The notes below the pieces were generated by a model that was not told the DNA's origin, made no database searches, and was given only the letters and a program-made list of their open reading frames with translations. Below are positions 7,154-57,152 of a stretch of 64,000 nt of DNA, piece after piece (position 1 is the stretch's first letter; each line of letters begins with the position of its first letter). The position numbers and the translations under genes are program-made. This stretch comes from Elusimicrobiota bacterium (GTDB lineage Bacteria; Elusimicrobiota; Elusimicrobia; Elusimicrobiales; UBA9959): the NCBI GenBank assembly GCA_036574205.1, contig JAINCQ010000021.1, positions 1 through 64,000 of the forward strand, given 5' to 3'.

Positions 7154-7163
7154 ATATTTGCCC

Positions 7164-9977: not shown

Positions 9978-10225
9978 AATTCCTCCAATAAATGCTATAT
10001 ACCAGGAAAGCGGGCAAATTTTTAAATTCAATCATATCTATAAATATATTAAACTTTATTTTTTTAATATTTGTTTACATTTTGTTAAATAATTATTTCA
10101 ACAGGAGATCTAAAAAAATTTAGAGGTATTAAAAAAATGATTAACGGGCTAAGCATAAAAAATGTTTATTATAGTTTATATTTATGCTGTATGAGATTTC
10201 TTCGAATGTTGAAAACTTATTCTGG

Positions 10226-12261: not shown

Positions 12262-13692
12262 GTGAAGAACTTTGGAAATGAAGTTTTTATGAAGATTTGT
12301 CTAATTAAAGAGGATTTAAAATTCAAGCGTAAATTTATTTTTTCAGCAAATATTATTTTATTTATTATGTCTAATATCTTTGGTTTAAGTGATGATAATT
12401 TTTCAAACACCTATTCAATAGCATATTCAAATACCTTGGTTAGTTTTCCAGTTAAATCCAACCCGGCTACTTATGGAGATATCAGAAATTTAACGCTTTC
12501 CTGTTATTATTCAAATCTTAATTATGGAGTTTATGACAATGAAGATTATCAGAACAGCGGTTTTGAGCTTTTCCTTCCCAAAATTACCTACACAAAAAAC
12601 ATGACATACTATTTTTCATATGAAAAAAATGAGGTGGATAAAAGTAAAATAAATATTTTTTCCTTTGGTGGGGCAAGTTATAACCTAATTGATTTTGAAA
12701 GCGAAAAGCTTGATATCGGATTTAATATTAAAAAACTAAATCTGGAAAATATTGTTGTTGATGGCGAAAGTAGCAAAGCTCTTTTTGATGTGGGGTTTTT
12801 AGTAAGAAAAAAAGATTATCTTTTTGGTCTTTCTTTTATTAATCTAAACTCTAATTTTGAGGATAAGGATTTTATTACTGTAAGTCGTGGCACAAAATTT
12901 TCAATCGCAAGGATAGGGAATGAATTTTCAGTTGGTTTTGATATAACACAAAGAAAATTGAATAATGATCTGAGTTCTTATTCATTAGCTCTTAGCGCAT
13001 CACAACTATGGAGAACATATAGATATGGCTCATTTACTACCGCATTAAGTATGATGATTGGCGATAAAAGGTCAAGCGCTGGTTTTGGGGTTTTTTATAA
13101 ACGCGATATATGGGAAGCAGGGTATGCTTTTTCTTTCGCTCTTAACTCCCCTCATAGCTTTAACAACGCGCTGTCGCTATCAGTTTTCTGGGGAAAAAGG
13201 GATGTGGAAAGCGATTATGAGAAGGTTATTCAAAGGGAAGTAAAATACAGAAAGGATCTTATGGCTGAAATTTATGAGGCTCAAAAAAGAGAGGAGAAGT
13301 TAAAAGCTAATATTTCAAAAATGCAGTCAGAGATAGATGAGTTAGTTTTTAATATGAAAAAACTTGAGGATTTACTTAACGCTGAAAAATTAAAAAAGAA
13401 AGAGATTGAAGAGGAAAAAAATAGAATAAAACAAACTCTTGACAATATAATTGAAAAACAAAGAAGGCAGCAGGAGGAGTTGAAGGATATAGAAGAAAAA
13501 AGAAGACTTGAAAAATTGAAGTTGATTGAGATGGATTTTAACAGAGATTTTGAAACTTATATGAAGATTAAGTCTCAAGGCGCCGCAAAAGAAGTGTTAT
13601 CTGGATATTTGAAAAAGATAATAAGTCAGTATCAAGATAGCGGAATAGATATTAGTATCGCAACTGTTGAAATGCAGAATCTATTAAAATAA
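12262..13692 (+). CDS. Putative outer-membrane beta-barrel (degenerate PorV/PorP-like) fused to a C-terminal coiled coil
   Basis: Hydrophobic leader, NPA motif, alternating aromatic strands (DVGFLV, YAFSF, LSLSVFWG), then ~150 aa E/K helix; start may be ATG 12289. Confidence 0.55.
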   Translation: MKNFGNEVFMKICLIKEDLKFKRKFIFSANIILFIMSNIFGLSDDNFSNTYSIAYSNTLVSFPVKSNPATYGDIRNLTLSCYYSNLNYGVYDNEDYQNSGFELFLPKITYTKNMTYYFSYEKNEVDKSKINIFSFGGASYNLIDFESEKLDIGFNIKKLNLENIVVDGESSKALFDVGFLVRKKDYLFGLSFINLNSNFEDKDFITVSRGTKFSIARIGNEFSVGFDITQRKLNNDLSSYSLALSASQLWRTYRYGSFTTALSMMIGDKRSSAGFGVFYKRDIWEAGYAFSFALNSPHSFNNALSLSVFWGKRDVESDYEKVIQREVKYRKDLMAEIYEAQKREEKLKANISKMQSEIDELVFNMKKLEDLLNAEKLKKKEIEEEKNRIKQTLDNIIEKQRRQQEELKDIEEKRRLEKLKLIEMDFNRDFETYMKIKSQGAAKEVLSGYLKKIISQYQDSGIDISIATVEMQNLLK

Positions 13693-13841
13693 AAAATTGT
13701 GTGTGTAGCTTGTAAATTCAGTTTATAGAATCAGGTTTTTATGTTGTTTTTTTCAACACTAAATCTCAAAACGGGAAATATGAAACAAAAAATTAATAAA
13801 GTTTTAATTAATATTTAAAGCACAGGATGTATAATTTTAGC

Positions 13842-15488
13842 ATGAGCGATTCTGAAAATTTTAATTTTTCTTTAAATGCAGATTCTCCAACCGCTGAGAT
13901 TATTAATTATTTTAAGAAAAAGCTTAAAGATAAAGTTCTTGAATATGAAGCTGAGCTTAAACATAAAAATGAAACTATAGAAAAGTTGAATGATCAAATA
14001 AGATCACTTGAAGAGATGATAGAACAATTAAAAAGCAGATATTCCCAGACAGAAAATGAAATCCTGACTCAAAATAAAGAGTTATTTGTAAAAATGGAGG
14101 AGTCAAAACAGATTTTAATCAAACAAAAAGAAAAACACCAGAAAGAGATATCTCTTTTAAAAGATATTTTTGAGAGAACCAAAATGGAGATATCACAATT
14201 TTCAGCGGAGATTGATGAGTTAAAAAAAGAAAGAAACAGGATTAAAGAAGAACTTCTGCTTGTAAAATCCCAGAAGTCTGATATTGAAGATAAAATGAAA
14301 ATGCTTGAAAATCAGCTTTCAAGCTCAAAAAAGGCGGTTGAAGAGACATTATCTGAGCTTTTTGAGGAAAGAAAAAAGGTTTCAGAGCTTTCAAAGAAAA
14401 TCACAGAAGGCGAAAAGGAGAAAGAGGAGTTGAAGAAACAACTTGAAAGCACTAAATTAGCCTGGGATAATGAAAGGGCTCAATGGAAGGAAATGTGGGA
14501 GAGAGAAAGAAGTTTATGGGAGTCCCATAGGATGGAGTTTGCTGTTTGGGAGGAAAGGCTCAGGAATGAGAGAGAGGCGTGGATCAAAAAATTAAAGGAA
14601 GAAGAGGAAAAAGGGGTTGAGTATGCTAAGGACTTAAGTAAAGTTTTAGAAGATGCGTCAAAATGGTCTTATAAGGTAGGCGAGTTGCTAAAACTTTATG
14701 CAAAAGACGGGGTGAGACTACCTCAGGTTTTTGTTTCACAAAAAACATTAGAGAAAAAAGCTAAATCAACTACAAAAAAAATTTTTGCTATGTTTTTAAT
14801 TGGTGCGCTTTTGCTTGGGTTAATAGCTTATACTGCTATTGATTATAAATCAAAACTTCATCTTGCAAAATATACATCTTTTACCTTAGATGATTCTAAT
14901 TATACTGGCTTTGTTAAAAGCGGCGATGTTTTCTTTTTCTCACATTGGTCTGGTGGAGTTGTCTTAAAAGATGCTGAGATGAAAAATATATCAAAAATTT
15001 CTGAGTTTGATGGATCAAAACTTAAAATATCAGCTATAGCAGAAGATGGAGAGTATCTATGGCTTCTTGATATGAGCGGACTTAGGTTTATCAAGGTTGA
15101 TCCATATACCGGAAAGATTGTTAAGAGTTTTAAAACGCTTGGTGTTGCTCCTCAAGGGGTTGCCTGCGATGGGTTTTATTTGTGGTCATTTGATGCATCT
15201 GCTGGACTTTTATATAGGTATGACATAAATGATGAAATTAAGGGTGTAAGCTCATATTCACTTGAAGGTATTAAAAATGTTAACTGGCTTGGATGGGTTG
15301 ATGGAATATTATATGTTGTTTCAAACGATAAGTTATATAGGTTTTCATACAACAATGATAGATTTAAAAAAATTTCAGTTCAAAACGCTAAAAATTTTGT
15401 ATATTGTTATGTATATAAAGATAAGATGTATGTTTTAAAAGATAATGGAAATATTAAGGAGTTTGATATTTATAAAATCAAAATTTAA
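13842..15488 (+). CDS. Bitopic protein: N-terminal coiled coil, TM helix, C-terminal beta-propeller-like domain
   Basis: ~300 aa coiled coil; TM IFAMFLIGALLLGLIAYTAI; repeats AIAEDGEYLWLLD / GVACDGFYLWSFD / LGWVDGILYVV. Confidence 0.65.
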   Translation: MSDSENFNFSLNADSPTAEIINYFKKKLKDKVLEYEAELKHKNETIEKLNDQIRSLEEMIEQLKSRYSQTENEILTQNKELFVKMEESKQILIKQKEKHQKEISLLKDIFERTKMEISQFSAEIDELKKERNRIKEELLLVKSQKSDIEDKMKMLENQLSSSKKAVEETLSELFEERKKVSELSKKITEGEKEKEELKKQLESTKLAWDNERAQWKEMWERERSLWESHRMEFAVWEERLRNEREAWIKKLKEEEEKGVEYAKDLSKVLEDASKWSYKVGELLKLYAKDGVRLPQVFVSQKTLEKKAKSTTKKIFAMFLIGALLLGLIAYTAIDYKSKLHLAKYTSFTLDDSNYTGFVKSGDVFFFSHWSGGVVLKDAEMKNISKISEFDGSKLKISAIAEDGEYLWLLDMSGLRFIKVDPYTGKIVKSFKTLGVAPQGVACDGFYLWSFDASAGLLYRYDINDEIKGVSSYSLEGIKNVNWLGWVDGILYVVSNDKLYRFSYNNDRFKKISVQNAKNFVYCYVYKDKMYVLKDNGNIKEFDIYKIKI

Positions 15489-15491
15489 GGA

Positions 15492-18400
15492 GTGTTTATG
15501 AAAAAAATATTAGCTTTATTTATGTTTGTTTTAGTTGCTAAGGTTGCATATTCTCAGCAGCTTTATGTTTCAAGAATGGAAGTTCGTCAGGGAGGTAATG
15601 AGTGGTGCAATGGCTACCAAGGAAGTGATAGATCACCGATATGGGATTTAGTTGGCGCAAGAATAGAATTTGATTATCCAAAGACTGGATATCCCGGGGG
15701 TTGTCTGTCACTTTGTGTATGGATTACCGCTGTAATACAGACTACAGCAAATGCTAATTTAGGTGTTGATGAGTTGACATTTGAAATATTCAAATTTAAA
15801 CCGGGGGCAAATCCTCTTGATCCATCATCCACACCTCCAATAAGAACTATACCTATGTATAATGTTGCGGCATTTTCAATGGCAGTCGTAAGTGAGCAGA
15901 CTTATGGCCCTGTATGCACTGCATGGGATGGGACTTATAATGTTGAGGGTTTTTGGGGAAAAACAAATGGTCAGTTTGGTTTTAGAGCTACGGTTAAAAC
16001 AAATATGGTTTCTCAAACTGCTGGAAATATAAATATACAGCAAACCGCTGCTTTCCCGGGCCAGAATCAAAACCCAATAACAGTTGATGTTACTAATATA
16101 CACGTTGTAAGAGCAACCCCAACTGTTGTTGGAAAAATAACAGCAGTAGGAGCTCAGCCGTATAACATACTATATAGATTGTCAAAAGACGCAACTGTGA
16201 CAATTACAGTTGAAGACTCACAAGGCAATCTAATAAGAACGATAGCTCAGTCATTGCCACGTTTTGGCGAAGGAATCCCTGATGGCGCGCTTATGAATGG
16301 TGATTTCTGGGACGGAAGGGATAATAATGGACTTCTTGTTCCCGCAGGCAATTATTTTTACAGAATAAATGCTGGAGCTCATGATGATTATGGCTGGGAT
16401 GAGGCTAATGAATATAGTGGGAATTTGAGTATAGATCCTCTTCAAATAACTGATATAGCTATAAAAGATTTAGGACCGCTTGCAACTGATGTTGCTATTA
16501 TAAGCTATCAACTAACAGAGGATGCGACAGTTTATCTTGATATATATCCACCAGGAACAAGCTTTAATTCTATAAACTGTTCTGCAAGATCAACAGCTTG
16601 TACAAGTGCATCTCCTTTGCGTTCAATAATATCTGAGATGCCGAGGCGGCAAACTGTAAGCATGTATTGGGATGGAAAGGATTCAAATGGGAATTATTTA
16701 TGCGATGGAAATTATACTTTTGCTTTATCTGCTGTTACAAAGGGAAGAGGGGGGGATATATGGACAAAAAAACTTGGGGTAGGAACTGTTTCAATAGCAA
16801 AAGGAAATCCACTTGCATTTTTAAATCCATCCACTACTATAATTGGTTCAACCCCTCCGGCTGCTGGTTTAAATCCATTTCATTTCAGATATCAATTACA
16901 AAGACCTGCAACAGTAAAACTTGAGATAAAAGATATGCTTGGAAATGTGAAAAGAACTCTTGTAAACAACGAAAGCCGTTCAAGCGGTTTAGTAAATGAT
17001 GAAATATGGGATGGTAAGGATGAACAAGGAAAGTGGGTATCAAGTGGAACATATCGTGCGGCTTTAACTATCAGAGATCCATATATGTGTATGCCGAATA
17101 ATACTTTTATGCACGATACCAGTTTTGATGTAAATCTTTTTAGAATAGTTGATGTTGTACCTCAGCATATAATAGGGCTTTCAACTCAGGCGGCAATAAG
17201 TTATCAGCTCAGTCAGAGCATGTGGACGGATGTTAAGATTTATAATCAGAATGTAAATATAAATCCATCGGATTGGCCATGGACACAAGCAGGTTATAGC
17301 GGATCAAATGTTATTTATTCTATTTCGGGGATGAGACCGGGAAGATATAAGATAACAGAATACTGGGATGGAAGGGACTCTCAAGGTTATCTTGTTGAAG
17401 ATGGGAGATATCCATTTACTATTGTTGCTTATTCTACGGGTTCTCAGGTTATGTATGCTATTGACAAAGCATATGGTTATATAGATGTTTCGCGCGGAGC
17501 TATAATGTTTTTCACTTTTAACATAACTCCAACAATAGCTGATATGAAGAATTCAAGCGAGGTTGTAAAACTTCCACCTTATCTTATTGAATATTCGTTG
17601 ACAAGACAGTCATCTGTAACGATAACTGTAAATGATTTTTATACAAATAATGTAGTTGCAAGAGTTGTAAATGGAGAAACAAGAGACCCATTTGTAAACT
17701 ATAAGGATTTCTGGGATGGGAAATGTTATAGAGGAATAGGCTGTGTTGATGGCCAGTGGCTAATTGGAACCTATAATGTAAATGTTTATGCTCAGGATAT
17801 TCTTGCAAATCCAAATGCCAGTATAGTTGTAACAACAGTTACTATGACAATAGACAATTATCCATTAAGGTTATATGACCTTGCTGTGGCTCCTTTAACT
17901 CCAGACAGTCCCGCGATGATAAGTTATCAGGTTTCAGAGCCAATGAAGGTTGCAATAAAAATCTATAAACCGGGGACGCAGTTTGTGGCAGATCAGCCCA
18001 TAGGTTGTGGGACAAATGAAGAAGGATGTCTTGTAAATAAGATTGTTGGGGTAAGACCAGCAAGGACCCTTATAACAGAATACTGGGATGGAAGGGATAT
18101 GACCGGCTCAGTTGTTCCTTCCGGAAATTATATATTTAAAATATTTGCTTCAACAGATTCAAGAGAGATAAGTTCTATCACAGCGGATTGCCCCGGCGGT
18201 GTTTGTAATTCACTTGCCGATGATATTATAATAGCTGATCTTCCCGCTATGCAGGTTTATGTAGAGGATGTATGTGAATATTTTGAAAACAACTCTTATT
18301 TTGCGCCAAATCCATTTAATACAGATGTGGGAAATTTTAGAGTAGCGGTTCCAATGCTTGGAAATGTTGAGATAAGGGTTTATAATCTTGGAGGTGATCT

Positions 18401-18653
18401 TGTTTATTCCTACAATAGCAAAAATACATGGCCAAATGGTATAGATCTTGAAAGCGAGGGGCAGTGTATATCAGGAAGTAATGATTTTAAAGGTGGAGTT
18501 ACTTGTAAGGTAGATCCAAAACTCAAATGGTCAAAAACAAATCTTTCTGGAAAGAAACTTGCCCCTGGCCTTTATATAGCTGTTTACAGGTTTTTGTCAA
18601 CGCAGGGAACAAAAGAATTATGTCAGTTCAGAAAAAAAATACTGATACCTTAA
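15492..18653 (+). CDS. Secreted multi-FlgD-Ig repeat protein with T9SS-like C-terminal domain
   Basis: Signal peptide; seven WDG motifs (e.g. FWDGRDNNGLLVPAGNY); terminal FAPNPF...IRVYNLGGDLV...GKKLAPGLYI...KKILIP. Confidence 0.8.
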   Translation: MFMKKILALFMFVLVAKVAYSQQLYVSRMEVRQGGNEWCNGYQGSDRSPIWDLVGARIEFDYPKTGYPGGCLSLCVWITAVIQTTANANLGVDELTFEIFKFKPGANPLDPSSTPPIRTIPMYNVAAFSMAVVSEQTYGPVCTAWDGTYNVEGFWGKTNGQFGFRATVKTNMVSQTAGNINIQQTAAFPGQNQNPITVDVTNIHVVRATPTVVGKITAVGAQPYNILYRLSKDATVTITVEDSQGNLIRTIAQSLPRFGEGIPDGALMNGDFWDGRDNNGLLVPAGNYFYRINAGAHDDYGWDEANEYSGNLSIDPLQITDIAIKDLGPLATDVAIISYQLTEDATVYLDIYPPGTSFNSINCSARSTACTSASPLRSIISEMPRRQTVSMYWDGKDSNGNYLCDGNYTFALSAVTKGRGGDIWTKKLGVGTVSIAKGNPLAFLNPSTTIIGSTPPAAGLNPFHFRYQLQRPATVKLEIKDMLGNVKRTLVNNESRSSGLVNDEIWDGKDEQGKWVSSGTYRAALTIRDPYMCMPNNTFMHDTSFDVNLFRIVDVVPQHIIGLSTQAAISYQLSQSMWTDVKIYNQNVNINPSDWPWTQAGYSGSNVIYSISGMRPGRYKITEYWDGRDSQGYLVEDGRYPFTIVAYSTGSQVMYAIDKAYGYIDVSRGAIMFFTFNITPTIADMKNSSEVVKLPPYLIEYSLTRQSSVTITVNDFYTNNVVARVVNGETRDPFVNYKDFWDGKCYRGIGCVDGQWLIGTYNVNVYAQDILANPNASIVVTTVTMTIDNYPLRLYDLAVAPLTPDSPAMISYQVSEPMKVAIKIYKPGTQFVADQPIGCGTNEEGCLVNKIVGVRPARTLITEYWDGRDMTGSVVPSGNYIFKIFASTDSREISSITADCPGGVCNSLADDIIIADLPAMQVYVEDVCEYFENNSYFAPNPFNTDVGNFRVAVPMLGNVEIRVYNLGGDLVYSYNSKNTWPNGIDLESEGQCISGSNDFKGGVTCKVDPKLKWSKTNLSGKKLAPGLYIAVYRFLSTQGTKELCQFRKKILIP

Positions 18654-18657
18654 AGAG

Positions 18658-19623
18658 GTGGTTATGAAAAATATATTAAAAACATTTATTGTTATAATAT
18701 TAGCTTCCAGTTTTTTAAATGCTGCTAGTGATGGGACAAGCGGTTTTGCTTTCCTTAAAATTCCAGCTGGATCTTCAAGGATTATGGGGCTTGGAAATAA
18801 TGGGGTTTCTCTCGCTAATTCTGTTGAAGCGATGAATATAAATCCAGCAGGGGTTGCCTTTGCCCAAATGAAAGAAATAAGTTTCTCCCTTGTAAATTGG
18901 TTTGAGGATTATAAAGGAAAGTATATTTCTTATGTTGAACCGCACGGCACAAATGTATTTGGAGTAAATATTGGATATTTTTCAACAGATGGGTTTGATA
19001 TAAGGGATGTAGATGGTGTTCCTCTTAATGCTGAGAATGTTAAATTTAAAAATATGTTTGGATCTATCTCTTTTGCAAAGTCTTTCTTTATGGAAAGATT
19101 TGCTATAGGCTTTTCGGCTAAGTATGTTAGCGAAGACAGGTATGAGACAAAAGATAATGCAATAGTATATGATGCTGGCGCGGTCCTTAAAATTTCAAGG
19201 AAGATTGCATTAGGTTTTTCACAGCAAAATATATCAGGAGATCAAAAAAAAGTCGTTGGATTAACCAGATATGGGATATCTATAACACCTTCAAGTTATC
19301 TTACGATTGTTGGTGACTCAAAGAAATATAGCGATACAAAAGGAAAATGGGGAGTTGGTTTTGAGTTTTCTCTTCCGGAGGAGCTTTTGCAATATGGAAG
19401 GTTTGTTTTCAGGGCTGGTTATAATGATTCAATAGATTATGGAAAAAATTATGATGATTCAATGCTTGATAAATTAGGCTTAGATCAAACAAGTGGGTGG
19501 AGTTTTGGTATAGGTGTTTATTCGGCATCCTCTTTTGGAAAAACATATGCTATTGAATATTCTATGATGCCTTATGGCGAGCTGGGAAAAACATCCCAGA
19601 TTACTTTTAAATTTCAGTTTTAA
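18658..19623 (+). CDS. PorV/PorQ-family (UPF0164-like) outer-membrane beta-barrel
   Basis: Signal peptide; FLKIPAGSSRIMGLG...NPAGVA N-terminal motif; YDAG; PYGELG; C-terminal Phe. Confidence 0.82.
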   Translation: MVMKNILKTFIVIILASSFLNAASDGTSGFAFLKIPAGSSRIMGLGNNGVSLANSVEAMNINPAGVAFAQMKEISFSLVNWFEDYKGKYISYVEPHGTNVFGVNIGYFSTDGFDIRDVDGVPLNAENVKFKNMFGSISFAKSFFMERFAIGFSAKYVSEDRYETKDNAIVYDAGAVLKISRKIALGFSQQNISGDQKKVVGLTRYGISITPSSYLTIVGDSKKYSDTKGKWGVGFEFSLPEELLQYGRFVFRAGYNDSIDYGKNYDDSMLDKLGLDQTSGWSFGIGVYSASSFGKTYAIEYSMMPYGELGKTSQITFKFQF

Positions 19624-19625
19624 TT

Positions 19626-19796
19626 ATGCGCAAAAGACGAGGACAAACAACTGTAGAATATATATTGATAACAGTTGTTATGGTTATAGCTTTTGTTGTT
19701 ATGCATAAAGCTCTTCAATGGGCGGCTGCCAAAAGATTTGAGCAGGATGGTGTGAGAATTTTAAGAATGTATAAAGAGGATTATTCAATAAAATAG
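19626..19796 (+). CDS. Small class III signal peptide prepilin (56 aa; absent from ORF track)
   Basis: MRKRRG|QTTVEYILITVVMVIAFVVMHKALQWAAAKRFEQDGVRILRMYKEDYSIK*: basic leader, Gly-1, Glu+5, Tyr+6, hydrophobic helix. Confidence 0.85.
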   Translation: MRKRRGQTTVEYILITVVMVIAFVVMHKALQWAAAKRFEQDGVRILRMYKEDYSIK

Positions 19797-19801
19797 AATA
19801 A

Positions 19802-19829
19802 TTGAATTTTTTAATAATTGTGCTATAAT
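19802..19829 (+). promoter_or_regulatory. Sigma70-type promoter for the major pilin
   Basis: TTGAAT (19802-07), 16-nt spacer, extended -10 TGcTATAAT (19821-29). Confidence 0.55.
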
Positions 19830-19888
19830 ATAAATAAAAAAGATAGAGGATAAATGAAAAGCAAATGCTTTTGATAAAGGAGGAAAAA

Positions 19889-20080
19889 ATGAAAAAGTAT
19901 TTTAAGGTAAGAAAAGGGCAAAATACTGTTGAGTATTTGTTGATGCTTGCTGTGGTCGTTGGTGTTGTGTTAATAGCAGGAATGGCTATAAAGAAATATA
20001 TGCCAACTCTCTGGGGACAGATACAGGGACTTATAAGTGGCGCTGCTGGATCACTCGGCGCTGGAGCTGGAAATCAATAA
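19889..20080 (+). CDS. flp: Flp-type (type IVc) major pilin
   Basis: AAGGAGG SD; MKKYFKVRKG|QNTVEYLLMLAVVVGVVLIAG; 63 aa. Confidence 0.85.
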   Translation: MKKYFKVRKGQNTVEYLLMLAVVVGVVLIAGMAIKKYMPTLWGQIQGLISGAAGSLGAGAGNQ

Positions 20081-20132
20081 ATTTTATAAAGAGTTTGATG
20101 GAACTAAAATTAGTTGAGAAAACAACAATGAG

Positions 20133-20621
20133 ATGGTGAAACTTTTAAGGAAAGCTCAGGTAACAGTGGAACTGCTTCTTGTTCTGCCGGTGTTTTTTTT
20201 AATGCTTTTTACAATAATGGAGTTCGGGCTTATAGCGCATAAAGTTATAGTGGTAAATCATGCGGCTTATGAGATAGCAAGGATAGGATCTCTTTTAGCA
20301 GGCCCCCATGGAGGGCAGAAAAATACTGCTTCAAAGATAGAGTATTCTAAACTTGAAGATGTAAAATGTCAGATCTTTGGTCCAACATGTGGAGAAGTTA
20401 ATCTTATTGCTACTATAGATACAACCGGCTATGATCCTCAGGTTGGACCCCAGCATATAAATGAAGATATAGTTGTAACACTTATTTATCCTGTTCATTT
20501 AATTTTTCCGGGTCCAAATTACTTTCTGGCGGATCCACCAAGAAATGTTCATATTAAAAGGATAAGAGTTACTGTGAGGATGCCAATTGAAAAACCGTTG
20601 TTTCAAAGTACAAGTTTTTAA
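20133..20621 (+). CDS. tadE: TadE-like minor pilin
   Basis: RKA|QVTVELLLVLPVFFLMLFTIMEFG...AAYEIAR. Confidence 0.88.
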   Translation: MVKLLRKAQVTVELLLVLPVFFLMLFTIMEFGLIAHKVIVVNHAAYEIARIGSLLAGPHGGQKNTASKIEYSKLEDVKCQIFGPTCGEVNLIATIDTTGYDPQVGPQHINEDIVVTLIYPVHLIFPGPNYFLADPPRNVHIKRIRVTVRMPIEKPLFQSTSF

Positions 20622-20685
20622 CTTTTTTTTAATATTAACTTAACAAGTTAAAGGTATAATTATTTTGTAAACCTAAGGAGAAAAT

Positions 20686-21441
20686 ATGGAAAAAAAACAT
20701 ACCCTAATCCCGCTTCTTCTTGCTATAATAGCTGCATCGCTATATTGGTGGATACTATCAAGCAAGGAAAGAGAGCTTTCAAGGGCATATGAAACAGCGC
20801 AGGTTTTGGTTGCTAAATACGATCTGCCTGCCAGGACCATATTAAAATCAGATCTTGTTGAGATTGCCGAGATACCAAGAAAATTTATAGAAAAAGATGC
20901 GTATGAAGTTAGAAATCCAAGCGATATTAAACTTGTTACAAACCTTGTTACCGCAATAAGAATTCCAAAAGGAAATCAGATAACACAGTCTGCTCTTTTG
21001 ACTCTCACCCCAGAAGCTGGGTTAAGCGTAAAGGTCCCTCCCGGATATAGAGGTGCGATGCTTTCAATTGATAGTGAGATGACAAAACTTATAAAGCCTG
21101 GAGACAGGGTTGATATACTTGTAAGTTTTGATGCAATAGTGGGAGAGAAAAAAGAAAAAGTTACCGCTACTATTTTGCAAAATGTTCTGGTTCTTGGTGT
21201 GGGGTCAAACCTTGGACAGGGGATGACCTCAGATCTTGCAAAAAAACAATCATCACAGGAAGCCGCTATGCAGTCTTTTTCAGATAAAGGTTCTTTAAGC
21301 CTTGCTTTAAATCCAATAGAGGCTCAGTATCTCGCGTTATCTCAGGAGATAGGAAAAGTTAATGTTGTTGTCAGGGCCCTTGGAGATGTTGAGATACATT
21401 ATATGGAAATAGCAAGCTTTAAGAAGCTTATTAAATCTTAA
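20686..21441 (+). CDS. cpaB: Flp pilus assembly protein CpaB/RcpC
   Basis: N-terminal TM, SAF domain (VLVAKYDLPAR), VPPGYRG, IKPGDRVDILV, ILQNVLVLGV. Confidence 0.92.
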   Translation: MEKKHTLIPLLLAIIAASLYWWILSSKERELSRAYETAQVLVAKYDLPARTILKSDLVEIAEIPRKFIEKDAYEVRNPSDIKLVTNLVTAIRIPKGNQITQSALLTLTPEAGLSVKVPPGYRGAMLSIDSEMTKLIKPGDRVDILVSFDAIVGEKKEKVTATILQNVLVLGVGSNLGQGMTSDLAKKQSSQEAAMQSFSDKGSLSLALNPIEAQYLALSQEIGKVNVVVRALGDVEIHYMEIASFKKLIKS

Positions 21442-21450
21442 GGAGAATCT

Positions 21451-22170
21451 ATGATTAAAAGAATAATTTTAATAGTTTTAGCTTCGGTTCCTTTTCCTCT
21501 GGTATCTCAGGATACGATGATAGCAGTAAGCGCCGATATAGTTGAGATAAGCGGTTCTATTCAAAAAACAAGCGGATTTGGGTGGAATCAGATGCTTGAT
21601 TTCGGTGAACAAAACATCCCGGGGATTTTGACAATAGGTGATTTTGAAAGAAGAACCCAGCTTTCATCTTCGTTAAAGCTTCTTGAAACAGAAGGAAAAG
21701 CCCAGCTTCTTTCAAATCCAAAAATTGTTGTTAAAAACGGAATGCAGGCAAACTTTACTGTTGGTGGCGAGATACCAATACCTTATTCTAACAATCAAGG
21801 GATAGGAGCGGAGTTTAAAAAATTTGGAGTCATACTTCAGGTTCTTCCAACTCAGGTTCCCAACAAAAAAGATACAGTTGATGTCCAGATAGCCCTTGAG
21901 GTATCAAATCCGGATTATTCAAAGCCAGTTGTTGTTCAAAATACCACAATACCATCAATGATTACGAGGCAAATACAGACTGAAGTAGAAATAAAAAGTG
22001 GAGAAACTCTTGTAATAGGTGGACTTAAAAAAAGCACGAGAAATGTTTCCATAAACAGAGTTCCATTGCTTGGTAGTATTCCTTTTATAGGAGCGCTTTT
22101 CAGGTCAAAAGATATTGTTGAAGATCAAAGCTCATTATTTTTGTTTGTGACATTTGAAATAATAAAATAA
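21451..22170 (+). CDS. cpaC: Tad secretin (CpaC/RcpA-like), secretin domain only
   Basis: LETEGKAQLLSNP, FTVGGEIPI, EFKKFGVIL, TEVEIKSGETLVIGGL, VPLLGSIPFIGALFRS. Confidence 0.88.
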   Translation: MIKRIILIVLASVPFPLVSQDTMIAVSADIVEISGSIQKTSGFGWNQMLDFGEQNIPGILTIGDFERRTQLSSSLKLLETEGKAQLLSNPKIVVKNGMQANFTVGGEIPIPYSNNQGIGAEFKKFGVILQVLPTQVPNKKDTVDVQIALEVSNPDYSKPVVVQNTTIPSMITRQIQTEVEIKSGETLVIGGLKKSTRNVSINRVPLLGSIPFIGALFRSKDIVEDQSSLFLFVTFEIIK

Positions 22171-22171
22171 A

Positions 22172-24367
22172 ATGGCTAATAGAATTATTACATTTACTGG
22201 GCCAAAAGAAGGTGTTGGAAAAACCTCTATTGTTATTAATTCTGCTGTAGCATATGCTCATCTTGAGAACAGAAATGTAATAATAATTCCAATGGATCAT
22301 CTTGCCAGGACTGAACATGATAAAATTCTTGGAGTTCCAAATACCCCATCAGTGGTGGATATCTTGAGAATGCTTGGGAGGGATTCTATAACAAGTGCGG
22401 GAATGCTTTTAAAAGGGAAAATACCGTTTTCTACATGGGGTGTTGGGGTTTTGCCGCTTGCAAAGAAAAGGCAGGATTTGCTTAAGCTTTCTCCCGATAT
22501 TCTAACAGGACTCATTTCAAAGCTTACCCAGAATTTTGATATATTCATAGATGTTGATCCGTATTATCCGATGCAGTTTTTCGCTTTTGATATCTCGGAT
22601 CTTGTTTTCTGGGTCACAAATTCAAATGCAAATTCTTTGAATGCCTCAGCCACAATATTTCGGGATATAAACGAAATGCATTTTCCTTTGTCAAGATTTG
22701 AGATAGTTGTAAATCTTTATGATATGCCGGGGGCGCTTGCTCCAAAGGATGTGGAGAAGTTTTTTAAGCAAATCGGCAAAGAGGTTCTTGCTTTTATGCC
22801 ATGGGAAGATGCATTGCCATCGTTTGCAAATCAAAACAAGATTTTGATAGTTGAAGATCCAAACGCTCAGTGGATAAAGATATTGAAGCTTATTATATCA
22901 AGGATAATGGATATAGAGCCGGTAGAAAAAAGCTGGGCAAGCACTGCCTCTCAAACAGAGTTTACTCATGGAAGTGATCTTTTATGGAAACCGGTTGAAA
23001 AAACCTCAGATCTTTTTGGTTCGGGTGGTTCGCAAACCCAGACAAAAGTAGTAAATATAGAACTTCCGCAGTGGTGGGAAGATCTTAAAATGAAAATTCA
23101 TAGAGATGTAGTAGCTGTTCTTGAGACTGAAAGGATAAAAATAAGCGATAATCCCGTTCAAAATCAGGAAGTAAGAAAAAAAGTTGATCAAATAGTTAAT
23201 TCCCTTTTGCAAAAAGAGACGGCATATCCTTTAACGAGAGAGCAAAGGACAAGATTTATATCGGAGCTTTTAGATGAAATATTGGGTCTGGGTCCGCTTG
23301 AAGAGTTGATGAGAGATCCTGCTGTTACAGAAATAATGGTTATTTCTGTTGATAAGGTTTATATTGAAAGAGCTGGAAAACTTACAAAGACGAAATTTCG
23401 TTTCAGGGATGAGGATCAGATAATTCAGGTTATCAAAAGAATAGTTGCGCCTTTAGGAAGAAGGATTGACGAGTCTGTGCCTCTGGTGGACGCAAGGCTT
23501 AAAGATGGTTCAAGAGTCAATGCTATAATACCGCCTCTTGCAGTAAGCGGGCCTGCTCTCACTATAAGAAGATTTTCCCAGAAACCTTTTACTGACAGAG
23601 ATTTGATTTCCAAAGGAAGCATATCGCAGGATATGGTTGATTTTATAAGATTATGTGTATTGCTTAGAAAGGATATAATAATTTCAGGTGGAACCGGAAC
23701 CGGTAAAACAACTTTTTTGAATATGTGTTCCGCTTATATCCCGGAAGGAGAAAGGATAATTACTGTTGAGGATACTGCCGAGTTAAAGCTTCAGCAGGAA
23801 CACTGGGTTCGTCTTGAATCCCGTCCGCCAAACATTGAAGGCAAGGGAGAGGTTACCATAAGGGATCTTGTAAAAAACTGCTTGAGAATGAGACCTGATA
23901 GAATAGTAGTTGGGGAGGTTAGAGGAGCGGAGGCTCTGGATATGTTACAGGCTATGAATACTGGACATGAAGGTTCGCTTGCTACAATACACGCAAACTC
24001 TCCCCGTGATGCGTTGACGCGTTTAGAGGCTATGTGCCTTATGGCTGGAGCAGATTTACCGATCTGGGCACTTAGAGAGATGATTTCAAGCGCAGTTCAT
24101 ATTATAGTTCAGCTAACCAGATTTTCAGATGGAACAAGGAAAGTTACATCTATTACGGAAATAACAGGAAGAGATGAAAATAAAATTCTTACACATGAAT
24201 TGTTTAAATTTGTTCAGACGGGAGTGGATGAAAGCGGAAAGATTCTTGGATATTTTACCGCTACTGGCGAGCCACCAAAGTTTTATCCTGATTTTAAAAC
24301 TCATGGTTTTGATGTGCCGGTAGAGATGTTCTGGACTGAAGATCAAAAAAGGCAAAGGGCAAAATGA
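22172..24367 (+). CDS. tadA: Fused CpaE/TadZ (MinD-like) - CpaF/TadA pilus ATPase
   Basis: N-terminal [10 protein letters not shown] deviant Walker A; C-terminal [50 protein letters not shown]. Confidence 0.93.
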
Positions 24368-25914
24368 AAAAAAATTTTTTAAAGGTAATATTGTTTTTTG
24401 GGGGATTAAATTGTTTTTTACCTCTTTCATCCGCAATTTTTTCAAAATATCAGATGGAGGAGATAAAATGCGCTTCCACAAAGGCTCAACTTTTTTATTT
24501 TTATCTCAAGCCAGATAGAGCCCCTGATATAAAGGATTTTTCTTTTAAATGCAAGGGCAATAATGTTAGATATATTATGCCACAATGGATTGACTCTACT
24601 CTTTCCAATATGATCAATAAAAAGGTCTGGCGCGATCCTGAGGAAGGAGAGGTGTCTGAAGCTGATTTATGGAGAACAGCTATATCTATAGTGTATGAAT
24701 TTCTTGAGGTAACCAAAAAAACATTTCCTCCTGAAGAGGGAGGACCTGGGATTCAACCAGCGCTTCTTGTTAAGGAGTATGCAGATGTTAAAATAAGATT
24801 CCAGATGTCTCTTGACAGGCTTTATAGGGCGCGGCTTGGCGAATCTTTTGATGGAAGGGGAAGGACCATACTTGCGATTTTTAATCTTATACTAAAAGAG
24901 ATGGAAGCCATACTTGAATCAATAGCCACTTCAAATCCGCAAAAATACAATCAAGCGGTTGTTTCTATAAGTGTTTTATCACAGGATGCTTTTTCAATGA
25001 TATTAAAGCCTTCAAGAAAGTATGAGCCACCAAGACCACCAGACAGATTCAAATTGATGTTATGGAAAATTTTTAGTGTTTTTGGAATAGTTCTCATTTT
25101 TGCAAGCGTTATATTATTTTTTGTTCTTAATGAAGAGAGTGTCAAAAAATGGAGTGAGGACTATAAAAAGAAAGTGGATATATGGAAACAGGATTTTTCA
25201 AGACAATTTCTTGATATAAACATCAATTATCTTGTGGTTGTCCCTATAATCTTTTTTGGTATTCTTGGTTTATTGACAATGAGTATACTTCTTTTCTTTT
25301 TCTTTCTCGTTATAGGGGCTATTATCGGCTTTAAACTCCCAAGGATTGTTTTAAACATCTTAAAAATGGCGCGTGGCAAAAAGATAGACGCTCAACTTAT
25401 GGATGCAATAATTCTTATGTCTAACTCATTAAAATCGGGGCTTGATATAATACAGGGTTTTGAGATGGTGTCAAAAGATCTTTTGCCGCCAATATCTGAT
25501 GAATTTGCTCTTGTTATAAAGAATTATCAACTTGGAATGCCATTTGAAAAAGCCCTGGCAATAATGGAGGATAGAGTTTCAAGCAAGATGCTTTCTTATA
25601 TGATAAGAGCCATTGTTTTACAAAGGCAGATAGGCGGAAATCTGACAAAGGTTTTTGAAAGAATTGTCATAGACATAAGAGAGGAATCAAAGCTTGAGGA
25701 AAAAACAAAGGCTCTTACTGCTCAACAGAGGATACAATCAATAGTTGTCGCAATAATGCCGTGGGTTATGGTTTCGGTGATGTTTGTTTTCCAGCCGGAT
25801 GTTATGATAAGATTTTATGCTACACCGCTTGGATTTTTTACCGCTGTTTTTTGCGTTATATGGATGAGTATAGGAATAAAGTTTGTTTCTTCGCTTGGAA
25901 AGATAGAGGTTTAA
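24364..25914 (+). CDS. tadB: TadB (T2SS F domain) with large N-terminal extra domain
   Basis: C-half DAIILMSNSLKSG, PISDEF, QRQIGGNL, KTKALTAQ; N-terminal ~230 aa with signal-like leader. Confidence 0.85.
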   Translation: MKKNFLKVILFFGGLNCFLPLSSAIFSKYQMEEIKCASTKAQLFYFYLKPDRAPDIKDFSFKCKGNNVRYIMPQWIDSTLSNMINKKVWRDPEEGEVSEADLWRTAISIVYEFLEVTKKTFPPEEGGPGIQPALLVKEYADVKIRFQMSLDRLYRARLGESFDGRGRTILAIFNLILKEMEAILESIATSNPQKYNQAVVSISVLSQDAFSMILKPSRKYEPPRPPDRFKLMLWKIFSVFGIVLIFASVILFFVLNEESVKKWSEDYKKKVDIWKQDFSRQFLDININYLVVVPIIFFGILGLLTMSILLFFFFLVIGAIIGFKLPRIVLNILKMARGKKIDAQLMDAIILMSNSLKSGLDIIQGFEMVSKDLLPPISDEFALVIKNYQLGMPFEKALAIMEDRVSSKMLSYMIRAIVLQRQIGGNLTKVFERIVIDIREESKLEEKTKALTAQQRIQSIVVAIMPWVMVSVMFVFQPDVMIRFYATPLGFFTAVFCVIWMSIGIKFVSSLGKIEV

Positions 25915-25917
25915 ATT

Positions 25918-26811
25918 ATGGATTTTTTTAACATAATATTGATAATAATAGGGGTTATAGGCGCCCTTGCAACTTTTGTTTTTACCCAGAGATTTTTTTC
26001 CCCGGCTAAGATAGAAGAGTCTGCGGTTTCAAATATAGCTGATATAGCCCAGAAAGAGGTATCACCATTTGACAGAATAGATCCTTCAAGAAGTTTTCTT
26101 GATAAGATAGATTATATACTTGCAAAGAACATGAAAATAGGAAGAAAAATAGAGAATCTTTTTATGCTTCTTGGAAAACCTGAAAACACAGATCCTCTTA
26201 AACTTTTACATATAAAAGAAGGATTGGCAGTTGGAGTTCCTATTTTCATTTTTTTCCTTATAGGTTCGCCTATAATGGCGCTGTTTTTTGCGCCTGTTGG
26301 ATTTATACTGCCTGATGTTTTTTTGAGTAGAAAGATACAAAAAAGACAGAGAGATATATTGAGAAACTTTCCTCAGTTTGTTGACCTTGCGGCGCTTATG
26401 ATAGAATCCGGGCTTGATTACATAACTGCATTTGATAGAATAGTGAAAGTTTCGCCGGTTAAAACAGAGCTTGAGAAAGAAATTGAAAAAATGATAGGTG
26501 AGATACAATTTGGATATTCCAGAAGAGACGCTTTAAGACGCCTTGCAAGTAGAACCGGACTTCAGGAGGTAAGATCTTTTTCCGGGCTTGTGATACAGAG
26601 CGATGAACTTGGAACAAGTCTTGTTGATTTATTGAGGAATTTTAGCGCGGATATGAGGTTTAGAAGATTAAATCGTGCCGAGAAATTAGCCGCTCAGGCA
26701 TCAACAAAAATGCTTATTCCTCTTTTCATATTTATATTCCCGGTTGTTTTTATATTAATGCTTGCTCCTATGATTAGCGATCTGCTTAGAGGCGGAGGTT
26801 TACCGTTTTAA
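25918..26811 (+). CDS. tadC: TadC (T2SS F domain)
   Basis: FPQFVDL...ESGL, GYSRRDAL, QSDELGTS, RAEKLAAQASTKMLIPLFIFIFP. Confidence 0.92.
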   Translation: MDFFNIILIIIGVIGALATFVFTQRFFSPAKIEESAVSNIADIAQKEVSPFDRIDPSRSFLDKIDYILAKNMKIGRKIENLFMLLGKPENTDPLKLLHIKEGLAVGVPIFIFFLIGSPIMALFFAPVGFILPDVFLSRKIQKRQRDILRNFPQFVDLAALMIESGLDYITAFDRIVKVSPVKTELEKEIEKMIGEIQFGYSRRDALRRLASRTGLQEVRSFSGLVIQSDELGTSLVDLLRNFSADMRFRRLNRAEKLAAQASTKMLIPLFIFIFPVVFILMLAPMISDLLRGGGLPF

Positions 26812-26824
26812 AGGTGGAGGTTTT

Positions 26825-28105
26825 ATGCGCTGGTTGTTTTTTTCTTGTATTTTTATTTCAGTATTTTCATTTGCTCAAAAATCCAGAGATGAATCCACTG
26901 CTTTTTTAAGCCTTGGAAATGTTGGGCTTGAAAAGTTAAACGATGTGGAGGAAAAGAAAAAATTTCTTGAAACGGTTGATATAGAAAAACAGAAAATCAG
27001 TGATTATCTCATTAAAAGAATACTTGATAACGCATATGAACTCTATCGTAATGGAGATTATGAAGGAGCAGCCACAGTTGCTAAAAAAGTTTTGTCTATA
27101 GACCCAAGCTCAGAAGAAGCAAAGATGATAGCCAATGCAAGCAGGAATATTAAGGGGAAATCTGGCGGGAAGATTTCGTTTGATGAGCAATTTGCCGAGG
27201 CTTTAACCCTCTATCAAAAGGGAGAAGTGCTTGACGCATATAGAAAGGTTGGGGTTTTAGTTAGACTTTCGCCAAGTAACGTAAAGGCAAAATACTGGTA
27301 TAAGAAGATAGAAGCTGATTTAAAAGATTATTATATATCTAAAGCCGGGGAGTATTATTCCTCAAATGATAAGAAGAATGCGCTTGTTATGTATTATAGA
27401 GCTCTTGAGTTTGCGCCAAAAGACAGGGAAATTTTATCCAGAATTTCAGGACTTGAAAATGAGATGAGGCAGGATAAGCTTAACCAGAAACTTAAAGATG
27501 CTCTTGAGATTTACGCTTCAGGCAGGATTGAGGATGCATATGCCCTGCTTAAAGAGGCGATAAGCATAAATCCGGCGGATGAGAAGACCAACAAGCTTTT
27601 TAATGAATTAAAATCTGAAATTGAAAACAAATATATAAAAGAAGGGGATGCTTTTTATAAGAAAAAACAATATTTATCATCCATAAAATCTTTTACAAAA
27701 GCGCTTGCTTACTCAGATAATCCTTCAAAACTTGAAAGAGTTATAAATAACATAAAAAAAACAATGAAGAAAGAAGAGGAAGCAAAAAAACGATATGCTG
27801 AAGAGAAAAAAAGAAAAGAGGAAGAGAAAAGGAGAAAAGAAAAAGAAGAGGAAGAAGCAAAAAAATCAGCTCAAGCCAGTACCACTGATGTTAAAACCTC
27901 AACTACTGATTTAAAAAATATTATATCAGAGCAGAATAAGATAGCGGCGCAGCAGCATTGGGTTGAAGGTGTTAAATATCTTCAAAGCGGAGATTATCAA
28001 AAAGCAAAAGAAGAACTTTCCATAGCAAAAAAACTTGATCCTACAAACTCGGATATAGACGCGGCTCTTAAAAGAATAGATCAGATCTTAGGGGGAGGAC
28101 AGTAA
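26825..28105 (+). CDS. Exported tetratricopeptide repeat protein (possible TadD-like)
   Basis: Signal peptide; several TPR motifs (AYELYRNGDYEGA...VLSIDP, ALEFAP, AISINP, AKKLDP); E/K-rich linker. Confidence 0.8.
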   Translation: MRWLFFSCIFISVFSFAQKSRDESTAFLSLGNVGLEKLNDVEEKKKFLETVDIEKQKISDYLIKRILDNAYELYRNGDYEGAATVAKKVLSIDPSSEEAKMIANASRNIKGKSGGKISFDEQFAEALTLYQKGEVLDAYRKVGVLVRLSPSNVKAKYWYKKIEADLKDYYISKAGEYYSSNDKKNALVMYYRALEFAPKDREILSRISGLENEMRQDKLNQKLKDALEIYASGRIEDAYALLKEAISINPADEKTNKLFNELKSEIENKYIKEGDAFYKKKQYLSSIKSFTKALAYSDNPSKLERVINNIKKTMKKEEEAKKRYAEEKKRKEEEKRRKEKEEEEAKKSAQASTTDVKTSTTDLKNIISEQNKIAAQQHWVEGVKYLQSGDYQKAKEELSIAKKLDPTNSDIDAALKRIDQILGGGQ

Positions 28106-28183: not shown

Positions 28184-28999
28184 ATGAAGTTAAAAGTTTT
28201 TTTGTGTATAATTTTGGTTTTTGTTAATTTTTCAAGCGCTAAAAATTTTATGGATTTTTCATACACAACAGGCGATAATGATTTTAATAAATATTCTTTT
28301 ACTTATCTTTTTAATTTTTCAACATATGTATTTTCAGGCTTTAATTATTCAGCCTATGATTTAAAAGATGTTTCTATAGTAAGCTCAGTAAGATTTCCAG
28401 TAAATATTTTATTAAAAAATGCTCTTTTATCTATAAAACCTTTCTATTATTTTAAAAAAGACGCATTTAAGGCAAAAGGCATAAGGCTTGGCGCAAGATA
28501 TATGAAGGGGGATGAAGAGAAAGAGATAAATACAGTATACTCTGGATTTATAGGGTATGCTAATATGGAATATGAGTCTAAAACTTTGAGTATAACTTAT
28601 GCTGATGCTTCTATTGAAAAAAATTTCTACGATCTTTTTTTCTTTTTTATCAGAGGGGGGGTCAGGCTTTCAAAAGAAGTTGTTAAATGGCCTGTTTGTT
28701 ATTTAGACAATTTGGATGTTTTAAGTTATAGTTATAGCGGCGTTTTATCTGATACTATTCACTCTGTTATAGGGCTTGAGCTGGCGCGAAGTTTTAAGCC
28801 AGATTTTAATAGTTATGTATATATCGGCGCAAACAGAATTAACACTTATTATAGCGATGTAAATTCATATTCCGCCGGCATTAAAACTTATCTTGACGAT
28901 AAAGAAAACTATTATATGGATTTCAATTATAATTATGCGGATTTTAAGAAAGGCAAAGATATTGATTTCTGGAAAATTTCAACAGGGATTAATTTTTAA
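28184..28999 (+). CDS. Putative outer-membrane beta-barrel protein
   Basis: Signal peptide, Tyr/Phe-rich alternating strands, C-terminal ISTGINF. Confidence 0.6.
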   Translation: MKLKVFLCIILVFVNFSSAKNFMDFSYTTGDNDFNKYSFTYLFNFSTYVFSGFNYSAYDLKDVSIVSSVRFPVNILLKNALLSIKPFYYFKKDAFKAKGIRLGARYMKGDEEKEINTVYSGFIGYANMEYESKTLSITYADASIEKNFYDLFFFFIRGGVRLSKEVVKWPVCYLDNLDVLSYSYSGVLSDTIHSVIGLELARSFKPDFNSYVYIGANRINTYYSDVNSYSAGIKTYLDDKENYYMDFNYNYADFKKGKDIDFWKISTGINF

Positions 29000-56882: not shown

Positions 56883-57152
56883 ATGGCATCAAAAACAAAA
56901 AGAACGCCGAACGCAAAATTCATGGCGCCTGTTACACCGGACGAGGTACTTGGTGAGATAGTTGGGTCAAAACCACTTCCAAGAACCCAGATAACAAAAA
57001 AAATATGGGACTACATAAAGAAAAACGGTTTGCAGGACAAGAAAAATAGAAGGATGATAAATACAGATGAGAAGCTCAGCAAAGTGTTTGGCGGGAAAAA
57101 ACAGATAAGCATGTTTGAAATTGCTGTTTATGTAAAAAAACATACAAAATAA
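56883..57152 (+). CDS. Stand-alone SWIB/MDM2 domain protein
   Basis: LPRTQITKKIWDYIKKNGLQD..N.R.I..D..L..VFG...ISMFE; SD GGAGG. Confidence 0.93.
   Translation: MASKTKRTPNAKFMAPVTPDEVLGEIVGSKPLPRTQITKKIWDYIKKNGLQDKKNRRMINTDEKLSKVFGGKKQISMFEIAVYVKKHTK

Follow-up and report, generated by a model that had tools for sequence, protein, structure and literature searches.

Type IX-like parts at the head of a Tad pilus locus in Elusimicrobiota: a PorV-family barrel and its Ig-domain rod, with a SprA-like translocon elsewhere in the genome

Why should a Tad pilus locus begin with parts that resemble a type IX secretion system (T9SS), and which machine would carry the protein concerned across the outer membrane? 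The locus that raises this question lies at positions 12262-28105 of a 64,000-nucleotide stretch of Elusimicrobiota DNA (contig JAINCQ010000021.1 of assembly GCA_036574205.1), called the window below; the source genome, G000, is 1.85 Mb long and 95% complete. Ahead of its tad genes stand a gene for a rod-like protein that ends in a type IX-like C-terminal domain (CTD) and a gene for a PorV-family outer-membrane barrel. The original prediction, made from the sequence alone, was that the CTD protein might be exported by, displayed with or act as the adhesin of the Tad machine. The reading that we consider probable is that SprA exports the rod, that the rod's own barrel holds it outside the cell, and that the rod serves the secretin or the pilus as an adhesin or collar.

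The rod, its barrel and their place at the tad locus

The rod gene (15492-18653, + strand) encodes a protein of 1053 amino acids (aa) with a signal peptide, seven FlgD-Ig-like beta-sandwich domains (PF13860, E 1.7e-34) and a type A-like CTD, which we propose to be cargo of SprA. An AlphaFold2 model built from 114 sequences contains eight beta-sandwich domains (pLDDT 87, pTM 0.56), the last of which (about residues 927-1053) bears the type A motifs PNP, IY..G..V, W..N..G and G.Y, and the lysine at -5 from the C-terminus is conserved in 113 of the 114 aligned sequences. This CTD scored 21.9 against the type A cut-off of 23, which the CTDs of four paralogous cargo proteins exceeded, and it is of the same ordinary type as those of eight other cargo proteins of G000. 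The internal repeats of the rod are homologous both to its own CTD (hhalign, 96%) and to the Ig domains of FlgD. A true FlgD, or a flagellar role, was rejected because only the Ig-like repeats match, while the sequence opens with a signal peptide and the modelled fold is entirely beta; the protein also does not have the form of the FlgD hook cap, which is about 230 aa long with a helical N-terminal cap region. A whole-chain Foldseek search with the rod model returned only generic multi-beta-sandwich proteins (TM-score at most 0.19) and was uninformative, a related-locus search of genome contigs with the rod sequence yielded no confirmed match, and in the ESM Atlas the first rod domain gave FlgD-Ig-like leads below 0.9 only. 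The named close homologues of the rod belong to Elusimicrobiota or Elusimicrobiales.

The cognate barrel (18658-19623, + strand; 321 aa) scored 88.2 bits with the PorV family model NF033709, whose cut-off is 90, and its profile matched PorV alone in the PDB (6h3i_F, E 5.6e-11). Despite scores below the cut-offs, the PorV label and the type A label of the CTD are supported by profile, alignment and model evidence. A CTD-barrel interface, which the original prediction had put forward as a check, was found in the model: the ESMFold2 complex of barrel residues 23-321 with CTD residues 925-1053 scored 0.93, against 0.00 for the best of three controls, and the mark that it passed was reached by 116 of 157 solved pairs and by 2 of 215 mismatched ones. 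The runs agreed in at least 97% of contacts, with a partner pLDDT of at least 84. Residue K1049 lies in the modelled interface, among the best-defined contacts, and a near-terminal lysine likewise contacts the barrel in PorV complexes (PMC10994853; PMC numbers here and below refer to excerpts of the papers). Interface residues 306-309 of the barrel should face outward in the model, since they are located just before the last strand.

The pair keeps its place in related genomes. We sampled 60 genomes of families f1, f2 and f5-f8 and fetched the DNA around the best matches; in all 60, a barrel gene, a CTD gene or both head the tad locus. The order rod, barrel, pilins and tadE, cpaB, secretin was seen in 38 of 39 loci, the 39th meeting a contig edge and resuming on another contig. 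The shorter order of barrel, pilins and tadE, and cpaB held in 49 of 49 genomes fetched (ten extra f2 genomes included), and in the other 11 of the 60 a CTD match lies within 2.5 kb of cpaB. A 357-aa version is present at locus L111 of G064, a genome of family f4. Because these genomes are related and not independent, the counts show one old, stable linkage. It is far beyond chance, and chance adjacency of the PorV/CTD pair and the tad genes was rejected. In this lineage the rod/barrel pair is a constant component of the Tad locus; the tie that the original prediction had drawn from a single sequence extends to its relatives, and unlinked pairs of this kind were not seen among them.

The tad-linked barrels also form a dedicated lineage. 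In a quick tree, 50 of them fell on one branch against 46 others (SH-aLRT, the SH-like approximate likelihood ratio test, 89; 99 without L111); the row L044 1014, labelled tad, is an accessory barrel and was left out of this count. Of 15 pairs of related genomes, 14 showed the rod to be less conserved than the barrel, and rod length in relatives ranges from about 1,030 to 4,044 aa. Assembly breaks are frequent within or beside the rod gene, and the tandem rod copies at L051 and L052 are 100% identical past their starts; given this identity, they may be assembly artefacts and were excluded as evidence of variation.

A SprA-like translocon in the phylum

Scans of 50 open reading frames (ORFs) of the window against Pfam, and of 17 against NCBIfam, recognised no SprA or PorK/L/M/N gene. 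The original prediction had made the same observation, which stands for the window only, since contig C29 of G000 encodes a 1,760-aa SprA-like protein. This protein scored 126.9 bits with TIGR04189 (cut-off 200), a model that found matches in 141 of the 151 Elusimicrobiota genomes of our phylum survey. When a 24-sequence family profile was used, SprA was the only PDB match (E 1.4e-37, in colinear stretches). The AlphaFold2 model of residues 561-1760, the range that the fold match covers, has a pLDDT of 87 and about 32 long strands by count, and its matches to SprA structures (E between 1.7e-40 and 6e-34, TM-scores 0.62-0.65) stand well ahead of the next one, at 3e-6. The sprA-like gene (L071:3930-11449 and L124-L143) usually diverges from lptF/lptG-like genes, and the gene after it, of about 240 aa, has a presumably ComF-like product. 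In the f12 loci L106-L108, sprA lies 3-4 genes upstream of cpaB, ahead of flp-cpaB-tadZA; a divergent PorV-like barrel of 407-477 aa follows tadC in five of the f12 loci L106-L108, L093, L094, L097 and L101.

The partners of such a translocon are equally widespread. PorV-family genes were found in 143 of the 151 genomes, with 13 barrels or more in the richest, and CTDs in 137. A PorV gene follows six of the nine genes for terminal-CTD proteins in G000, and among the 30 best PorV loci of the phylum a CTD gene is immediately upstream in 19 and one gene apart in 2 more. Because these gene pairs recur across the phylum, the rod/barrel module is one instance of a phylum-wide system in which a cargo protein is encoded with its own barrel. 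Some CTD-bearing ORFs are very large: they exceed 5,300 aa in G000 (L079 on C26, L074 on C19) and reach 13,077 and 18,913 aa in relatives (G060:C6 and G032:C2).

The known motor and sortase were not recognised. GldL was found in 0 of 151 genomes, a count made without a control genome that carries the Gld families, so that remote homologues are possible, and G000 gave no significant match to GldK, GldL, GldM or GldN (best GldL E 0.1), again without a positive control. The PorU sortase (peptidase C25) was found in 0 copies in G000 and in 2 of the 151 genomes. The PorZ model gave only CTD-region matches in G000, where no dedicated search was made for SprE, SkpA, Plug, PorG or PorZ, and the type B CTD (TIGR04131) had no match there in a search without a positive control. 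Of a canonical T9SS, then, we found a SprA homologue, a PorV barrel predicted to bind the CTD, and cargo with a Sec signal and a type A CTD; the GldL/GldM motor, the GldK/GldN ring and the PorU sortase were not found. With motor and sortase not found, this is not a canonical T9SS, nor was one found elsewhere that could account for the pair, and most likely it works like the translocon half of one. Elusimicrobiota would thus have a reduced type IX-like route, with a SprA-like translocon, many PorV barrels that mostly stand beside one CTD cargo each, and no recognisable GldKLMN or PorU.

A candidate motor for the SprA route is encoded on contig C32 of G000 (L123:8167-16972), in an operon for a PorV barrel-TPR fusion, an exported or transmembrane FliG(M,C)-TPR protein, a 923-aa coiled coil, MotA, MotB and a lipoprotein-like product. 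Matches to this FliF-FliG/MotAB/PorV operon and its FliG-like protein, weak ones included, occur in 57 of 151 genomes, in 0 of 45 of family f2 and in 1 of 44 of f12. Because of these last two counts, the Tad ATPase becomes a candidate force source in f2 and f12. Tad as a general requirement for SprA was rejected, since all 20 listed genomes without cpaB have SprA.

The streamlined family f2 narrows the question of what SprA is for. CTD matches at E 1e-9 or better number one in 34 of its 45 genomes, more in 7 and none in 4, and in each of these four a contig begins at the barrel gene. Positions are listed for 31 of the 34 single-CTD genomes, and in 30 of the 31 the match lies within 2.5 kb of cpaB. 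Five f2 genomes were searched down to E 0.05, and every CTD match fell in the rod ORF (5/5). A single strong PorV match was present in 31 of the 45; in the five f2 genomes checked, the best PorV match was the tad-linked barrel, and weaker, longer barrels lay elsewhere. SprA is kept in 44 of the 45 genomes while the rod is mostly the sole CTD protein found, and so the simplest reading of these gene contents is that SprA is retained to export the rod.

Pilus secretins and the possible roles of the rod

Outside this lineage, in other classes, related rod/barrel pairs also lie near secretins, and not those of Tad machines only. A profile of the internal repeats was run over 54 other genomes and ten repeat-protein loci were fetched; several multi-kilodalton ORFs with weaker repeat matches lie outside the fetched set. 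In these and other fetched loci, the rod and barrel genes stand in this order between tadA and tadB in L206, before a short secretin in L211 and L222, after one in L221, and after long AMIN-STN (pilQ-type) secretins in L225, L227, L228 and L230, of which L225 and L228 have confirmed PilM, PilN and PilO upstream and L230 has PilN. Because related pairs follow pilMNOPQ operons, the link is not Tad-specific. A systematic check of 46 other genomes gave 12 ORFs that match the repeat region (five further ORFs matching the C-terminal part alone were excluded), and 9 of the 12 are within 10 kb of a secretin gene, for which the chance is about 2% per ORF. The remaining 3 meet contig ends, and for one of them (in G004) the 6.8 kb of DNA upstream hold no secretin. 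A careful tree of 41 selected barrels placed the 16 secretin-linked ones on one side and 25 others on the other, and in it the pilQ group and the group of other-class Tad barrels joined at 97/90. In the CTD tree, the secretin-linked CTDs were not cleanly apart, with 2 other CTDs among them.

A sequence of events can be proposed from these data. The rod, given its signal peptide, would be exported by Sec, and its CTD would then bind the adjoining barrel, as the model and the gene pairing suggest. It would cross the outer membrane through SprA, in keeping with the retention of SprA where the rod is the sole CTD protein found. With no recognised sortase, the rod would stay bound to its barrel as a rod of Ig domains, by analogy to the pairs of type B CTD and PorP. 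There it may serve a type IV filament secretin from its outer side, as adhesin or collar acting together with the pilus, a role to which the gene linkage to Tad secretins and PilQ points.

The pilus might also take a larger part. The Tad secretin itself might export the CTD protein, or this protein might be the adhesin of the pilus tip; such a role would suit the tight linkage, the unusually stripped secretin and genome G042, which has no SprA match. Yet SprA remains in nearly every f2 genome, where the rod has few recognised rivals as its cargo, the CTD is of the ordinary type common to eight other cargo proteins, and further pilins are supplied by a second locus on contig C43, including a 375-aa prepilin that is presumably TadG-like and has no Pfam match. 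A barrel-bound protein, moreover, would be unable to ride a pilus tip, and we regard both forms of this idea as highly improbable. The proposal that the Tad machine exports the CTD protein is not supported, given the presence of a SprA-like translocon in G000 and most of the phylum, the phylum-wide occurrence of the pairs and the position of related ones after pilMNOPQ. On contact killing, which the original prediction named among the uses of Tad-like machines, the results had no bearing. Alternatively, the pilus machine might be the missing motor, with the TadZA ATPase or pilus retraction pulling the barrel-cargo complex off SprA, as GldLM powers this step in Bacteroidota. Release of the carrier-substrate complex is an energy-requiring step (PMC10994853), GldL was found in none of the 151 genomes, f2 lacks FliF-FliG/MotAB (0/45) yet retains SprA, Tad and one cargo, and three fetched f12 loci have sprA at a distance of 3-4 genes on the upstream side of cpaB. 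Against this, the 20 listed genomes without cpaB all have SprA, five other cargo-barrel pairs of G000 have no pilus link, and other stators (TolQR, ExbBD) were outside the survey, so that we think a motor role unlikely. The broader proposition, in which a motor-less type IX translocon is coupled physically to type IV filament secretins by a PorV lineage and its Ig-rod cargo, and in which the Tad ATPase or pilus releases cargo from SprA where no other stator exists, seems to us doubtful.

The opposite view is that there are two independent adhesion systems, a PorV-anchored adhesin and a Tad pilus, which share an operon and are co-regulated without contact. Cargo-PorV pairs are common, with up to 13 or more barrels in a genome, a promoter-like site precedes the major pilin gene, and most secretins have no such pair. 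The link persists, nevertheless, whether the pair lies between tadA and tadB, on either side of a secretin or behind pilQ, the pair is kept where nearly all other pairs have been lost, and the secretin-linked barrels group together; mere co-regulation is therefore improbable in our estimate.

Several observations weigh against the reading that SprA exports the rod and that the barrel holds it at a secretin. None of the SprA-like matches in the 151 genomes attains the curated 200-bit cut-off, a single-sequence PDB search with the C29 protein found no SprA, and this protein falls short of SprA's length by about 600 residues. G042, which is 98% complete in 8 contigs, has a tad locus with the barrel and no SprA match even by the family profile. 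The CTD profile is half tad-type (9 of 17 rows) and may miss divergent f2 cargo, and the Gld searches had no positive control genome. The complex score may reflect likeness to PorV-CTD structures already solved, in which case the pass at 0.93 would speak for that likeness and not for binding in the cell; among the other, non-secretin pairs, CTD and barrel similarity did not track significantly (rho 0.21, reached in 132 of 2000 shuffles). Only 9 links were found among 89 secretin matches, so that most secretins outside the lineage have no such neighbour, and the branch that unites the secretin-linked barrels is supported only at 83/88, by which their single grouping is neither shown nor rejected.

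Gene layout and relation to known systems

The original prediction described 13 co-oriented genes, and all 13 ORFs of this Elusimicrobiales locus are on the + strand at the coordinates first given. In gene order the gaps are 134, 3, 4, 2, 68, 52, 64, 9, 1, -4, 3 and 13 nt, which bears out the spacing of 2-4 nt described for the propeller, rod, barrel and first prepilin genes; the gaps of 3 and 4 nt depend on GTG starts and become 9 and 10 nt with the ATG two codons downstream. The family scans upheld the FlgD-Ig/CTD, PorV and Tad labels; the "propeller" label is only weakly backed (Pfam, E 0.005). It belongs to the second gene (13827-15488; 553 aa), whose product combines a cytoplasmic coiled coil (SMC-like matches) with one transmembrane helix (residues 315-340, by hydropathy) and a C-terminal beta-rich, propeller-like domain. 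The first gene (12262-13692; 476 aa) encodes a divergent outer-membrane barrel of the PorV family that has a coiled coil at its C-terminus; the Pfam scan gave no match, and the label comes from the hidden Markov model of its orthologues, which matches PorV paralogues at E 2e-13. Orthologous loci hold the first gene in 11 cases and the second in 13, and both were judged accessory because they are missing from the f2 loci. Coiled coils thus occur in both accessory genes, which are absent from f2, as is the FliG module. At 4439-10031 (- strand) the window also encodes two long proteins with coiled coils, of 904 and 955 aa, that match no family; similar ones are encoded on C29 and C32.

Downstream of the barrel the Tad set is present by family scans, namely a Flp pilin, a TadE-like minor pilin, CpaB/RcpC, the TadA ATPase, TadZ and a TadB/TadC pair. 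The gene at 19626-19796 encodes a minor Flp-like prepilin (56 aa), whose class III signal is below the cut-off and whose GQ..EY motif is kept in 33 aligned sequences. It is followed by a Flp prepilin that is probably the major pilin (19865-20080; PF04021, PF16982; its true start may be the ATG at 19889), the TadE-like minor pilin (20133-20621; 162 aa; PF07811) and CpaB/RcpC (20686-21441; 251 aa), which scored 96.5 bits with TIGR03177 (cut-off 71). The candidate promoter, TG-TATAAT at 19802-19829, lies ahead of the major pilin gene; such sites are near chance frequency, as promoter-like and terminator-like counts were close to shuffled values (83 vs 70 and 15 vs 11). The secretin (21451-22170; 239 aa; PF00263) is minimal, with a signal peptide and a secretin domain, and lacks the periplasmic N domain of RcpA/CpaC; its best solved match is RcpA (8odn, E 1e-26), and the short form is kept in 38 orthologues. 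Then come a TadZ-TadA (CpaE-CpaF) fusion ATPase (22172-24367; 731 aa; CbiA 6-223, T2SSE 372-651), TadB (24364-25914; 516 aa; T2SSF 350-473), TadC (25918-26811; 297 aa; T2SSF) and a TPR protein in TadD's place (26825-28105; 426 aa), which was assigned by TPR matches and conserved position. At its N-terminus TadB carries an additional exported domain, about 200 aa long and with two conserved cysteines, recognised from its transmembrane profile and conservation, for which the ESM Atlas gave no usable match. No tip pilin of the TadG/CpaL type and no prepilin peptidase was found within the locus. The second pilin cluster (L186:2082-5611 on C43) encodes a 70-aa Flp-like protein, the 375-aa prepilin and a 205-aa TadE-like protein, all three without Pfam matches, and then an FtsH-like ATPase. 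At L118 in G022, a genome without SprA, PorV or CTD match, the tad region looks fragmented, and joint decay in a reduced genome is possible.

Elsewhere in the window, the TPR gene is followed at 28184-30540 by two genes, one for an outer-membrane-like protein of 271 aa and the other for a GAF-PAS histidine kinase, which are neighbours in the two closest relatives only. An 89-aa stand-alone SWIB/MDM2-domain protein is encoded at 56883-57152, and an integrase-core (IS-like) gene lies at the contig start (56-1348).

How do these parts compare with known systems? In P. gingivalis, the PorQ-PorZ and PorV-PorU pairs hold a CTD protein on a PorV/PorQ-family barrel without cleavage of the CTD, much as proposed for the rod; the cargo here differs in being a non-catalytic Ig rod in which no sortase domain was found. 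The T9SS of Bacteroidota (F. johnsoniae; PDB 6h3i, 8gl6, 8gl8; PMC10994853) shares with Elusimicrobiota the SprA-like giant barrel, by profile and fold, the PorV-family barrel, and cargo with a Sec signal and a type A-like CTD whose near-terminal lysine touches the barrel, here in the model. It differs in its GldKLMN and PorU, which were not found here, and in a SprA of 2,403 aa compared with about 1,760-1,900 aa. One PorV serves all type A cargo in Bacteroidota (PMC12618676), whereas Elusimicrobiota have many PorV paralogues, mostly paired with cargo genes. In Bacteroidota the motor is required for release from SprA (PMC10994853), and the Gld energy chain is described in PMC12635249. Pairs of type B CTD cargo and PorP/SprF (SprB-SprF, PG1035-PorP; PMC9143113, PMC12618676) resemble the rod and barrel in their gene linkage and in the proposed anchoring of the cargo on its own barrel, and by analogy the rod/barrel pair may work like such an anchor pair, although with a type A-like signal, a PorV-family barrel and a pilus as partner instead of a gliding track. 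The Tad/Flp (type IVc) pilus (A. actinomycetemcomitans tad, Caulobacter cpa, P. aeruginosa RcpA-TadD; PMC10499894) has Flp, TadE, CpaB, secretin, TadZ, TadA, TadB, TadC and a TPR protein in the same usual order. P. aeruginosa RcpA has an N domain (PMC10499894), whereas the Elusimicrobiales locus has an N-domain-less secretin, a TadZ-TadA fusion, the extra exported domain of TadB, putative TadG-like and further pilins at a second locus, and the CTD-cargo/PorV pair at the head of the operon.

A Tad region of Elusimicrobia has already been noted, with a suggested role in DNA uptake (PMC8809381, PMC6668835). In the papers found, as far as their excerpts go, the T9SS is described as confined to Bacteroidota or to the FCB group and as GldLM-dependent; the excerpt of PMC4793230 reports it for 60 of 97 genomes of Bacteroidetes and for no clade besides these, a range that leaves Elusimicrobiota outside, and PMC12204202 contained nothing that bears on the question. 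A literature search that subscription papers mostly lay outside turned up no description of SprA or PorV for Elusimicrobiota, or of PorV with secretins; supplementary T9SS tables could list Elusimicrobia.

The locus is real and conserved, and its combination of parts is a variant of known systems. A SprA-PorV-CTD core in nearly the whole of another phylum, without that motor or the sortase, suggests that the T9SS also has a simpler form, perhaps an older one. The streamlined Elusimicrobia, which by these searches have one translocon and one cargo-barrel pair, offer a minimal background in which to test what releases cargo from SprA, and the pair itself points to an undescribed outer-surface accessory that is common to Tad and type IVa pilus secretins.

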